DNA of 24,624 nucleotides from IMG/VR virus record IMGVR_UViG_2585427758_000008. One strand, given 5' to 3'. The position numbers and the translations under genes were made by a program. Positions 9,194 to 24,624 of this stretch are shown one piece after another. The notes beneath the pieces are model-generated. The model ran no database searches. It was not told where the DNA came from and saw nothing but the letters and a program-made list of their open reading frames with translations. Numbering within the stretch: position 1 is the stretch's first letter; every line of letters starts with the position of its first letter. The stretch is from a virus (Duplodnaviria; Heunggongvirae; Uroviricota; Caudoviricetes).

Positions 9194-9370
9194 TGGTTTA
9201 AGGTATACAAACGCATTACCTTACCCTCTTCAGGCGCGTGTCGTGATTTTCTAACCTGTATTTAACGGGCTTTAAAATCTGCGTGAAGCGCCTTTCTCAT
9301 TTTTCCCCTGTCAGCACTTTCTGAAGTCCCGCAAAACCGGCCCCGAAAAACACCGGCTTATGCTGCCGGA
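9194..9370 (+). promoter_or_regulatory. 177-bp G-I intergenic region; candidate late promoter (Mu PI position)
   Basis: Only long non-coding gap inside the morphogenesis operon; Mu has a C-dependent late promoter upstream of I. No motif could be confirmed by eye. Confidence 0.3.
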
Positions 9371-17658: not shown

Positions 17659-19003
17659 CACGCCGGGGCGTGGCTCCTTTCGTGGCGTACCGTTCCTGGT
17701 TTATCAGGAGCAGCGGGAACGGGGCGGACGTAACATTGTGCGCCGTGAATACCCACTGCGTGAAAGCGGCGGTGCGGATGATCTGGGGCCAAAACTCCCG
17801 GAGTTCACATTCACGGTTCTAGTGACCGGAGACGATCTTCAGACACAGCGAAGCCGCCTGCGTGATGCGCTGCGTGCACCCGGTGCCGGTGAACTGATGC
17901 ACCCGGATTACGGCACGTTAAACGTGCTGATAAACAGCTTTGAAAGCCGTTATAACGCCAGCGAGCAGGGAACGGTTGAGTTCACGATCAACGTGACCCC
18001 CGCCAGTGACGATACCGCCCCTTCGGTGGCAGAAGATACGGCAGCTGCGCTGGAGCAGAAAAGCGGCTCAGCAATGAATCAGCTGTTTAACACACTTTCA
18101 GACGGCTGGACGGTGATTTCAGACGGTCTGCATGATGTACAGGCCATGACCGACACCATCAGCGATAAAATTGATGCGCTGGAGAATGCCGTTTCAGGGA
18201 TGGGGATTGTGCAGGATATCAGTGCCTTTACGGCCAGTTTTACTGCCCTGAAAGGGAATGCCGCCGCCCTGATTAATGCGCCCCGTCGCATGGCTGAATC
18301 GCTGGCCGGAATGTTTGCCGTGCTGGCGGGGCTGCCCGGCGATCCTTCCCTGTCGCTGACCGGAAAAGCCGGAACGCCGTCCGGCAGCCTGACCACAAAC
18401 CGTGACAGCACGACAGAGCAGGCCATGCCGCAGCTGTACCGCACACTTTCTTCCCTGCGTTACACCCTCAGCGAACAGGATGATCCGCAGCGCCTGATTG
18501 GTCTGACGCCTGCGGCACAGAACAATATCCGTCTGCTGCGGAGCGTCATGCAGAGTGCAGCCCTGGTGTCGCAGGCGCAGACGGTCGGAAAACTGCTGGA
18601 TCAGGTCATCCGGCAGAATACGACGCACGTTCAGGATACTGACCGTGCGGGCGGACTGGCCTGGCTGGAAAGTTCTGCTGATGTGCAGCGTATCAACCGG
18701 GATTTGAGCGATGCCATGGAACAACAGGTGCTGGATCTGTCCGCACAGGGCCATACCGGCACCGCCCTTGCATTACGTGATGCAGGGCTTGCGCTGACAG
18801 AAGATTTAACCACGCGGAGCGTGCATCTTCCCGGTGCTTTTCAGGTCATGGTGCGAACCACCGAACCGGCACTGGTCACGCTGTACCGTGCCACCGGTAA
18901 CAGCCGCCGCTGGCAGTATTTTGTCCGCAGAAACAATATCCCCGATCCGGTTTTTGTTCCGGGTGGCCGCCGCGTGGAGGTGATCAGTGAGCAGCAGGAT
19001 TGA
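17645..19003 (+). CDS. Mu N-like DNA circularisation / tail protein (gp43-like)
   Basis: 452-aa ORF with GGAGGG RBS, directly after the tape measure as in Mu. Confidence 0.65.
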   Translation: MASTDTPGRGSFRGVPFLVYQEQRERGGRNIVRREYPLRESGGADDLGPKLPEFTFTVLVTGDDLQTQRSRLRDALRAPGAGELMHPDYGTLNVLINSFESRYNASEQGTVEFTINVTPASDDTAPSVAEDTAAALEQKSGSAMNQLFNTLSDGWTVISDGLHDVQAMTDTISDKIDALENAVSGMGIVQDISAFTASFTALKGNAAALINAPRRMAESLAGMFAVLAGLPGDPSLSLTGKAGTPSGSLTTNRDSTTEQAMPQLYRTLSSLRYTLSEQDDPQRLIGLTPAAQNNIRLLRSVMQSAALVSQAQTVGKLLDQVIRQNTTHVQDTDRAGGLAWLESSADVQRINRDLSDAMEQQVLDLSAQGHTGTALALRDAGLALTEDLTTRSVHLPGAFQVMVRTTEPALVTLYRATGNSRRWQYFVRRNNIPDPVFVPGGRRVEVISEQQD

Positions 19004-22227: not shown

Positions 22228-22778
22228 CCCTGACCCCGCATCAGCGCGCCCTGTTGCAGTTACTGCCTGACGGGCTGGCATGGGACAAGCGTCCGTCATC
22301 CGTACTGGCATCATTATGTCTGGGCCTCAGTCATTCGACAGCGCGTGTATCCTGGACGGGTAAACAGCTGCTTGCCGAGCGTTTCCCTGACACGTCGCGC
22401 CTGCTGCTGGAAGACTGGGAGCGTTATCTCGGGCTTCCCGAGTGTGATATGGCCGGAGCCACCCTCACGGAGCGACAGCGTTATGCCGGAAATAAATACC
22501 GGATGAAGCCCTCGCTGAACCGTGAATTTTATATCCGGTTTGCGGCGGAGTTTGGTTATCAGATTGACATTCAGCCCTCACCGGATTCGCAGTGGGTCAG
22601 TATTGTCACGATTAACAGTGAAACCGGCTACCGGAATATGAATGTGCTGGATGATATTCTCACGCCGCTGCGTATTTATGAAGGCGGTGCGCTGGAATGT
22701 ATTCTGAACCGTTATAAGCCTGCATGGCAGACGTTTATTTACGTTTATGCAAACAGCCATGAAGAGGAGACTATTTAA
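22218..22778 (+). CDS. Tail protein, Mu gp48 / YmfQ-like
   Basis: 186-aa ORF between the baseplate J gene and the tail fibre gene. Confidence 0.7.
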
Positions 22779-23668
22779 TGTTTCATGTTGATAATAATTC
22801 CGGCGTGGCGAATATGCCTGCGCTGGCACCGGCGCAGAGTAATACCACCACCTGGTTTACCGAAGGTGACGGACAAAAAGGTATCAGCTGGATTGGTCAG
22901 GACTGGCTGAATATTCTCCAGGCCGAACTGCTGAATATTCTGGCTGAAGCCAGTATTCAGCCGGATAAGGCGCAGTTAAACCAGCTTACGCTGTCCATTA
23001 AAGCCATTATCGCTGCGAATGCCTTTTCCCGGAAAAATAACCTGAAAGAAATTGCTGATGCCGGTGCGGAGGCCCAGCGTCTGGCCCGTGGTTATCTTGG
23101 TCTGGGGACGCTTGCCACAAAAAACAGTCTTGGTCCCGCTGACGTTAATGCCCTGGCGAAGGATCAGAATCTCGCCGACCTGGAGAATAAGGGAACCGCC
23201 CGTAATAATCTGGATGTTTACAGCAAAAGCGAAGGTGATAACCGTTACCTGCGCAGGGAGCAGAACGGCGCAGACATTCCGGATAAAGGGGCTTTTATCG
23301 ATAACGTCGGTTTACGGGAAACGGTAAACAGGGCGGCGAATGCCCTGCCATCGGACGGCACCGCCGTTGCCGCGAATAGACTCGCCACCCCAAGAAATAT
23401 TAATGGGGTTCCCTTTGACGGGACGCAGGACATAAACATCACTTCTGGTATAACACAGCAGGATGCGGATTCCCGATATATCCAGGATATCAGGCTGGGA
23501 GCAGAGAACAGGCAGGTAATGTACGGTGGGGCATATTACTCTGCGTACGGTAATGTTATGGCAGGCCTGCAGATTGACAGTAAAGTTGATGCTTCAAACG
23601 ATTTTATAGCATTCAGACCCCTGCAAAAATTAGTCGGAGGTACATGGATTACGGTATCTCAGTTATAA
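22778..23668 (+). CDS. Tail fibre protein S: constant N-terminal part joined to the variable C-terminal part currently in the expressed orientation
   Basis: 296-aa ORF; the recombination site lies at codons 173-181, so roughly the first 177 codons are outside the invertible segment; C-terminus ...[18 protein letters not shown]. Confidence 0.8.
23295..23320. other. gix/hix-like 26-bp recombination site for a serine DNA invertase (left boundary of the invertible segment)
   Basis: TTATCGATAACGTCGGTTTACGGGAA; its reverse complement matches the Mu gix site as I recall it (TTCCTGTAAACCGAGGTTTTGGATAA) at about 22 of 26 positions. The inner half is repeated in inverted orientation at the window edge. 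Confidence 0.6.
23308..23376. repeat. Inverted repeat (69 bp exact) at the left inner end of the invertible segment
   Basis: Exact reverse complement of 24556..24624, checked base by base. Confidence 0.85.
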
Positions 23669-23719
23669 ATAGTCAGTAAATAATATATTTTAAAACAGAT
23701 TTATTTCCAGGAGGATTTT

Positions 23720-24241
23720 ATGGAACTAAAAAATATAACCCGTTATTATCCTGAAAATATGCCATATGGTAATAATGTTCAGTATTTCCAGAGTGAAGAT
23801 GGTAAGGATTTCTACGAATCCCTGCCATTATTCACCAAAAAATATAAACTTTGCATAACACCTGACAGCGGCGTTATCTGCTCAATATCACAGGACGCCT
23901 CGGCGCTGTATCCTGCGGGGTTTTCTGTGGTTGAGGTCGATGAACTCCCTGAAGGCACGGATATTTCAGGAAACTGGAAGTTTGATAATGGCATAATCTC
24001 CCGTATTCCGGTTAACTACGCAAGAAAACTGGAAGCAATGCGCCAGTCATATCTTAATCAGGCATATGAAAAAATTAATGACTGGAGAACGGAGCTACAA
24101 CTGGGCACCATCAGCGATGAAGACAGAGCAGCACTTACCCAATGGATGGCATACATCAGTCAGGTGAAGAAAATGGAACTACCCGCCATTAAAACAGAAG
24201 CTGAATTTAACGCCATTAAATGGCCTGAGCAGCCACAGTAA
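23720..24241 (+). CDS. Tail fibre assembly protein (Mu U-like)
   Basis: 173-aa ORF directly after the fibre gene with AGGAGG RBS; AT-richer than its surroundings. Confidence 0.8.
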   Translation: MELKNITRYYPENMPYGNNVQYFQSEDGKDFYESLPLFTKKYKLCITPDSGVICSISQDASALYPAGFSVVEVDELPEGTDISGNWKFDNGIISRIPVNYARKLEAMRQSYLNQAYEKINDWRTELQLGTISDEDRAALTQWMAYISQVKKMELPAIKTEAEFNAIKWPEQPQ

Positions 24242-24244
24242 TAA

Positions 24245-24264
24245 AGAAGGCCGGAAGGCCTTCT
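24245..24264. terminator. Bidirectional hairpin between the convergent tfa and alternative fibre reading frames
   Basis: agaaggcc - ggaa - ggccttct, an 8-bp stem, lying in the 31-bp gap between two converging stop codons. Confidence 0.5.
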
Positions 24265-24272
24265 GAATATCA

Positions 24273-24624
24273 TTATATACTTGCAGCCGTCACCCATGCT
24301 CCATTTAACAGATACTGCAACGGCCGGTAATACACGCCGCCGACGTTATCTGCCGTATTCTTACCGACATCCTGTACTTTAATTCCGGTAAGAACATTGC
24401 CGCCCCCCAGATTCAGATCCCAGCTTTCCCATGTTCCGGGCATATGTGCGGTCACCGACCCCAGTCTTATGGCGGTTACTGTTCCTGATGAGATAGTGAT
24501 ATCCTGCGTCCCGTCAAAGGGAACACCATTAATTGTGTGGGCATTTGCCAGCCTGTTCGCGGCAACGGCGGTGCCGTCCGATGGCAGGGCATTCGCCGCC
24601 CTGTTTACCGTTTCCCGTAAACCG
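24273..24624 (-). CDS. Alternative tail-fibre C-terminal variable segment, minus strand, 5' part beyond the window
   Basis: Minus-strand frame open from the window edge to a stop at 24273; encodes ...[18 protein letters not shown]...YRPLQYLLNGAWVTAASI, parallel to the C-terminus of S. Confidence 0.65.
   Translation of the reverse strand, partial: GLRETVNRAANALPSDGTAVAANRLANAHTINGVPFDGTQDITISSGTVTAIRLGSVTAHMPGTWESWDLNLGGGNVLTGIKVQDVGKNTADNVGGVYYRPLQYLLNGAWVTAASI
24556..24624. repeat. Inverted repeat at the right inner end of the invertible segment, truncated by the window edge
   Basis: Exact reverse complement of 23308..23376; the last 13 bases ttcccgtaaaccg form the inner half of a second gix/hix-like site. 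Confidence 0.85.

Follow-up and report, generated by a model that had tools for sequence, protein, structure and literature searches.

How can an invertible tail-fibre segment, which places one of two alternative tips on the same fibre, manage with a single tail-fibre assembly gene? In the G segment of phage Mu (S, U / U', S', gin) there is one chaperone gene per tip, and the C segment of P1 and the P segment of e14 are comparable invertible segments. The question is raised by a stretch of 24,624 nucleotides from a virus of the Caudoviricetes (IMG/VR record IMGVR_UViG_2585427758_000008), which is called the window here, and which ends on its right in a Gin-type invertible segment (23308-24624) holding the end of the tail-fibre gene S, one assembly gene tfa and an alternative tip that opposes both. 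An earlier note on this DNA had left two ways out, namely that the second fibre needs no dedicated chaperone or that one orientation is crippled and the switch is decaying. We compared the segment with its relatives, and functional statements throughout are inferences from this comparison of sequences. The reading that we favour, and to which we give an even chance of being right, is that this would be the host-range switch, in working order, of a Mu-like prophage of the Sp18 type, and a minimal Mu G segment in which one generalist Tfa would fold both tips.

Organization of the invertible segment

The features on which the argument leans are the following.

22778-23307, plus strand: constant N-terminal part of the tail-fibre gene S (Sc), outside the invertible segment
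22778-23668, plus strand: the whole S gene, 296 aa
23295-23320, unstranded: gixL-like left crossover site, TTATCGATAACG-TC-GGTTTACGGGAA, 26 bp, central dinucleotide at 23307-23308
23308-23448, unstranded: left inverted-repeat arm, 78 nt at 96% and a 50-nt block at 84%, coding for the common start of both tips
23309-23668, plus strand: tip of class T1, now fused to Sc and in cis to tfa, variable part 72 aa
23669-23719, plus strand: AT-rich spacer from the S stop to the tfa start, 51 nt, with AGGAGG 7 nt 5' of the ATG
23720-24241, plus strand: tfa, the sole tail-fibre assembly gene, 173 aa
24245-24264, unstranded: GC hairpin between the convergent stop codons, 8-bp stem
24623-24273, minus strand: opposing promoterless alternative tip S'v of class T2, 116 aa, variable part 69 aa, stop codon 24273-24275
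24547-24624, unstranded: right inverted-repeat arm, of which 24612-24624 is the inner half and first central base of gixR

The inverted repeats pair 23308-23385 with 24547-24624 (78 nt, 96%) and 23399-23448 with 24484-24533 (50 nt, 84%). The minus-strand frame that runs from 24623 to 24273 is open and in register with the repeat, its first 26 residues being the repeat-encoded part of S.

No second tfa was found when the open reading frames of the segment (at least 40 aa) were compared with Pfam; apart from tfa itself, there were only antisense frames of 60 and 45 aa between the tips, neither with a Pfam match. The claim that the segment leaves no room for another chaperone gene was upheld, as the stops at 24241 and 24273 are separated by 31 nt (24242-24272) that hold the hairpin and nothing else, and a gap of 31-35 nt with a hairpin inside it is common to every relative aligned. 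The hairpin in its 45-nt context folds at a dG of -14.4 kcal/mol (z = -4.7), and 0 of 200 shuffled sequences folded as well. In the allele of the window the stem is followed on the minus strand by TTTATT, which would make it terminator-like for the fibre transcript after inversion; in most other alleles the T-run, judged by eye, lies on the tfa-sense strand instead. A search of 22700-24624 against Rfam gave no RNA family match.

Compared with the fibre of Mu, the S protein is short (296 aa vs 504 aa). Its residues 1-198 match residues 1-191 of Mu S (PDB 5yvq_A, 4.9e-51) and its residues 229-294 match the Mu S tip (residues 435-502); the middle of Mu S, about 240 aa long (residues 192-434), is without counterpart. 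For the T2 tip the matches were the Mu S' chimera 8ju3 and 9cuy, the short fibre of phage phiTE. All the tips fall into one family; T1 and T2 are members of the same PHROG family and share 47% identity over the aligned length and about 30% in the variable part, which comprises 72 residues in T1, 69 in T2 and 69-79 across the lineage. Both tips carry the motif RPLQ.L..G.W.T at the C-terminus. This similarity had been pointed out before, along with the thought that one chaperone might recognise both fibres, and since the tips are homologous, a single chaperone could serve both of them.

Crossover sites and inversion in public genomes

Judged from exchanged half-sites and from genomes found in either state, the repeats are genuine recombination sites and the switch is active in nature. 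The gixL-like site was found once in the window, with none expected by chance, and is present in all relatives; the sites resemble those of a Mu-type Escherichia coli prophage (locus L006 of our comparison). The window stops at base 13 of the partner site gixR, TTCCCGTAAACC-GA-GGTTTTCAGGAA, and the whole gixR, with the core GA, is visible in loci L001-L009. This end coincides exactly with the outer edge of the repeat, as is typical of a short-read contig broken at an inverted repeat or by a segment that occurs in both orientations. Beyond the point where the window ends, near-identical relatives carry a recombinase of 190 aa which begins 61 nt past gixR and matches Mu Gin (PDB 3UJ3, 4M6F) at about 2e-88.

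Inversion is directly visible at locus L002 (NZ_OZ547136), where the entire segment is turned round and the inner half-sites have changed places, with the point of exchange precisely at the central dinucleotide. The other tip is fused to S there, and tfa is convergent on S. Public genomes thus contain the very state that the earlier note had deduced, with the alternative tip joined to constant S and tfa opposed to the late operon, and its assumption that the repeats serve as recombination sites stands as well.

The element is widespread in E. coli and was matched in 231 of 5,426 complete genomes, O157:H7 included. With the exact cassette set of the window, 18 complete genomes are flipped and five have the window's orientation; fusion of T2 to Sc was seen in 18 complete E. 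coli genomes and also in database proteins of 293 aa. Three of the five genomes in the window's orientation owe it to degraded second copies with a frameshifted gin. NCCP 13983 combines this orientation with an intact recombinase (WP_000904914.1), and the identical protein occurs in the flipped L002. FORC_029 and FORC_069 are flipped, and since they and NCCP 13983 are nearly equal in genome length and at least 99.3% identical in their segments, yet opposite in orientation, the inversions are recent.

Two copies of the prophage in opposite orientations were observed in each of NZ_CP103972 (DLI.5a), NZ_CP069093 (TOE17) and NZ_AP043639 (AST46). The copy with the frameshifted gin is degraded and frozen in the window's orientation; the other is flipped, and the tail genes that flank it are annotated as intact. 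In the degraded copy of AST46 both tips are frameshifted too.

Conservation and reassortment of the one-tfa layout

We parsed 12 intact invertible segments, from E. coli (an O157:H7 strain included), from one Stx-phage record with an inserted Mu-like phage and from Citrobacter rodentium; relatives by descent are among them. Exactly one tfa of 173 aa and a hairpin gap of 31-35 nt before the opposing tip were present in all 12. A scan of GTDB species genomes with the constant part of S returned four loci, one of them informative, the low yield being due to a single-sequence query that reaches close relatives only. The informative locus, a prophage of Citrobacter braakii ATCC 51113 (L010), follows the same one-tfa plan with a longer fibre (472 aa) and a longer Tfa (229 aa). 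By this comparison the one-tfa layout is characteristic of the lineage, the Sp18 type of E. coli O157.

L010 has three gix-like sites (5812, 7839 and 8205) and not two. The third is located just 5' of the gene for the invertase, where 34 nt pair with the left site at 85%, and may represent a relic or a second possible inversion.

Each part of the segment was clustered at 93% DNA identity, and the resulting combinations show that the cassettes have been shuffled, with the same tfa allele next to different cis tips and different distal tips, and with breakpoints at every junction. The tip that adjoins tfa falls into four classes, T1, T3 (like Mu S), T5 and T7. The tip at the far side, by comparison, belonged to the class T2/T4 in 12 of 12 segments and is recognised by the marker ..SGINVQ[DE]TG.NSADNIGGVYYRPVQ... 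For these distal tips dN/dS ranged from 0.06 to 0.19, with dS between 0.7 and saturation, and it was 0.09 for the T2 of the window against the Citrobacter rodentium allele. The substitution pattern and the cassette combinations indicate that both tips are under purifying selection and that tfa alleles reassort freely with the tips on both sides. Moreover, the cis tips T1 and T3 are near identical from locus to locus, T4-class distal tips diverge far more, and the two sides of the segment seem, from these alignments, to differ in their evolutionary dynamics.

The state in which tfa lies antisense was found in seven of the 12 parsed segments. A similar picture is given by 79 clusters of full-length fibres in the protein database, where 48 have a T2/T4 tip on Sc and 26 a tip of a cis class.

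Tfa and its relatives

The product of tfa belongs to Pfam PF02413 (Caudo_TAP, the family that includes lambda Tfa and P2 G; 69.2 bits vs a cut-off of 22.1, 4.8e-19), matches phrog_136 (4.7e-56) and is homologous over residues 18-153 to Mu U (5yvq_B, 4.2e-16). In the phage collection it comes closest to tail2 of Rac-SA53, with 49% identity over the full length and about 62% over the N-terminal 90 residues, as counted from the alignment. A distance of 2 nt separates the start of tail2 from the preceding fibre gene, whose product ends in a T4-class tip, and the T4-class tips of L006, of the P2-like phage fiAA91-ss and of C. braakii each have a tfa directly downstream. A non-invertible relative (L018, 3001-4583) carries a T4-like tip on S, followed 11 nt further on by a co-directional Tfa of 219 aa (weak Caudo_TAP match plus DUF4376); no orphan tip, gix sites or recombinase were found in it. 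The N-domain of Tfa is 70-90% conserved across cassette combinations. These pairings suggest that the Tfa family is a normal partner of T4-class tips.

Two independent derivatives without invertase are locked in the state in which the T4 tip is expressed and tfa is convergent, and both of them have kept an intact tfa together with the spacer upstream. In L033/L034 (3900-4800) a deletion of 0.87 kb took away the orphan tip, gixR and most of gin. L030/L031 (3960-5000) belong to another lineage, in which Tfa consists of the same N-domain joined to a DUF4376 C-domain and a degenerate remnant of gixR is left.

Proposed working of the switch and expression of tfa

In the reading that we favour, a serine invertase of the Gin family, encoded just to the right of the window, would recombine the two inverted 26-bp gix-like sites and thereby join constant S to one of two homologous tips. 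In the orientation of the window, tfa would be read together with S from the late operon. After inversion the fibre transcript would end at the hairpin, and convergent transcription of tfa would depend on a separate signal, probably situated in the AT-rich spacer, so that the single generalist Tfa could fold whichever tip is on. One generalist Tfa is the most economical assumption, because tfa alleles reassort and because the Tfa family appears to be a normal partner of T4-class tips elsewhere. If Tfa is a generalist for both tips, it follows that tfa must be expressed in either orientation. On the comparisons above, Tfa most likely serves the distal tip, and tfa would then be expressed in both orientations.

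The region before tfa offers hints on how this might be achieved. The spacer measures 51-120 nt in the 12 segments of the E. coli group and 69 nt in C. braakii; the distance is 1-11 nt in co-directional fibre-tfa pairs. In the window the GC content of the spacer falls to 0.30. The length and AT-richness of the spacer hint at a candidate site for an orientation-independent tfa promoter, and the arrangement of the hairpin, which resembles a two-way terminator, hints at two separately transcribed genes. Taken further, tfa would be autonomously transcribed, with its own orientation-independent promoter in the spacer, a two-way terminator shared with the fibre gene and a product that acts as generalist chaperone for either tip, the cognate T2/T4 tip being encoded convergently. 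We advance this model tentatively and rate it a little short of an even chance.

A motif resembling a late promoter (TYCCGCAAAWCCKGCCCC, about 17 nt, TAYGCT) was derived from the regions before lys (in L001), I and P. Its sites were observed in the window at 9327-9344 and 18925-18943 and in L001 at 2784, that is, before gene I and lys, with a looser form before P. They are probably activator-dependent late promoters of the phage.

Several results weigh against a shared Tfa with a promoter of its own. No promoter facing tfa was found when the segment and the gixR-gin spacer were scanned with the sigma-70 consensus in both orientation contexts, and a less strict search of nine loci, over the 220 nt before tfa, gave only weak -10-like hexamers, as AT-rich DNA would. 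The late-promoter-like motif, known from three sites only, was absent in and beside all segments. The three types of spacer upstream of tfa have no sequence relationship to one another and thus offer no conserved element to point to. A fully symmetric model of a shared chaperone does not predict the strict asymmetry of the tips (distal T2/T4, 12 of 12). Finally, the locked derivatives are clonal, with identical copies, so that the tfa they have kept could simply mean that the deletion is recent.

Alternative explanations

The main rival restricts Tfa to the tip in cis (T1, T3, T5 or T7) and lets the distal T2/T4 tip of these short fibres fold and trimerise without a chaperone, tfa being unneeded and unexpressed in the flipped state. 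We consider this unlikely, although several observations agree with it: no tfa promoter is detectable in the flipped state, the hairpin of the window would terminate the flipped fibre transcript as though S'v were the last gene of the operon, and the asymmetry of the tips is strict. However, T4-class tips elsewhere directly precede a tfa (L006, fiAA91-ss, Rac-SA53, L018 and L010), and the nearest phage relative of the present Tfa is paired with such a tip. A tip that folds unaided would also not lead one to expect an intact tfa in the locked, tfa-convergent derivatives, and it leaves the long spacer before tfa without explanation.

The second alternative takes up the suspicion of the earlier note that one orientation is crippled, in which case flipped virions would be without proper fibres and the segment would be a decaying remnant of a G segment with two tfa genes. 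In its favour, flipped tfa runs against the late operon with no promoter found for it, degraded copies do exist (gin is frameshifted in L001 and L027, both tips in L005), and an insertion sequence sits in the lysozyme gene of the prophage in the window. Against this, the layout is kept across shuffled cassettes and across genera, purifying selection on the distal tips is strong even though synonymous divergence is saturated, and both states are common, the flipped one being the commoner. A truly decayed copy looks different: in L005 both tips and gin are frameshifted, and the window is unlike it. Nor did the comparison with related Mu-like prophages, which had been suggested as a way to detect the loss of a second tfa, give any evidence of such a loss; no allele contains a remnant of one, and the gap measures 31-35 nt throughout. 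The maintenance of both tips and the frequent occurrence of the tfa-antisense state rule out the reading of one orientation as a dead end that leads to loss; a crippled orientation as such is very improbable.

Least probable of all is that the chaperone of the flipped state is supplied in trans, by the tfa of another prophage or by a second copy of opposite orientation in the same cell, for although DLI.5a, TOE17 and AST46 hold two such copies, tfa alleles reassort freely with tips and Tfa proteins cross-complement between phages (lambda Tfa for T4 gp38, for example), in most genomes nothing points to a second copy (the median number of matching places is one or two per genome, and a single copy in the window's state already gives two with the flipped query), an unrelated prophage that is not induced would be an unreliable source for a phage moving from host to host, and the conserved spacer and the tfa retained in locked derivatives would stay unexplained.

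Prophage context

At its left end the window starts inside an insertion sequence (1-1341), which we take to be IS186-like, with a DDE_Tnp_1 transposase at 173-1291 on the minus strand and terminal inverted repeats of 23 bp, CATAAGCGCTAACTTAAGGGTTG. The phage lysozyme gene is interrupted by it and reduced to its C-terminal part (1338-1709); therefore this copy of the prophage may be unable to lyse its host. In every relative a gene between gin and com/mom (for example L001, 7583-9637) codes for a protein of about 684 aa that combines a SASA domain (sialate O-acetylesterase-like) with DUF6645 and may represent a second function of the lineage that acts on the host surface.

Implications for fibre engineering

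Tail-fibre swapping is the main route to the re-targeting of phages and tailocins, and it often fails, each new tip being thought to need its own chaperone. A natural switch that runs at least two tip classes with one Tfa implies either that Tfa is a generalist or that one tip class folds unaided, and either property would be useful for fibre engineering. If tfa is indeed autonomously transcribed, the segment would supply a design rule for minimal host-range switches, in which a tip of 70-80 residues is exchanged and the chaperone is shared. The locus also poses a regulatory question, namely how a gene antisense to the late operon is expressed in time. The idea of a degenerate segment is corrected, and the long spacer before tfa provides a simple comparative marker of the one-tfa architecture.

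Comparison with known invertible systems

In systems of the type of carotovoricin Er, Min of p15B and the shufflon of enteropathogenic E. coli (EPEC), chaperone genes and tips need not be equal in number. These three systems differ from the present one in that their backbones are P2-like or those of tailocins. A serine invertase has been described to swap fibre C-termini in carotovoricin Er, where it is called Ein (PMC13195805), and in the P2-like shufflon of EPEC (PMC4272514). The Mu prophage segment of EPEC E2348/69 was reported to be phase-variable in culture (Goldberg et al., 2014; PMC4272514), but no coordinates were given, so it cannot be tied to the present type.

Rac-SA53 (tail1/tail2) and fiAA91-ss (H-G) carry T4-class fibre tips like the distal tips here; they differ in being non-invertible, with fibre and tfa co-directional and 2-3 nt apart, the usual coupled order of such genes. 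The closest counterpart is the Mu-like prophage of E. coli O157:H7 strain Z869 (L007), which we take to be of the type of Sp18, the Mu-like prophage of O157:H7 Sakai. It has the same architecture of S, convergent tfa, orphan tip, recombinase and DUF6645 gene, and differs in its tips: the window, in the tfa-sense state, has T1 / T2, compared with T5 / T4 in L007. In their study of Sp18, Asadulghani et al. scored its host specificity region as atypical and found its DNA to be efficiently packaged. This remark that the Sp18 region is 'atypical' was the only one that our search of the literature for a single-tfa invertible segment returned; no paper noting or explaining such a segment was found.

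The likeness to the Mu G segment extends over the whole design. In the window's relatives an invertase of the Gin family lies beside the segment, gix-like sites of 26 bp with a 2-bp core lie at the ends of the inverted repeats, and the crossover falls at the same point of S (GLQETVNRA in Mu, GLRETVNRA in the window). The constant N-terminus of the fibre is encoded outside and the alternative in-frame C-termini inside, the tips are homologous to those of Mu S and S', and Tfa, of the Caudo_TAP family, is homologous to Mu U. The differences are that there is one tfa here and two in Mu, that the segment measures 1.3-1.4 kb instead of about 3 kb, and that only the terminal tip of about 70-80 aa varies, the shaft of about 240 aa of Mu S being missing. 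Furthermore, a spacer of 51-120 nt precedes tfa and the distal tip is always of one class, whereas the Mu-type prophage L006 has the canonical two tfa genes, each 1-2 nt after its own tip. Every testable feature that defines the Mu G segment was found here with the single exception of one tfa per tip, and the single-tfa segment is new as a variant of a Mu-type inversion that is itself already known.

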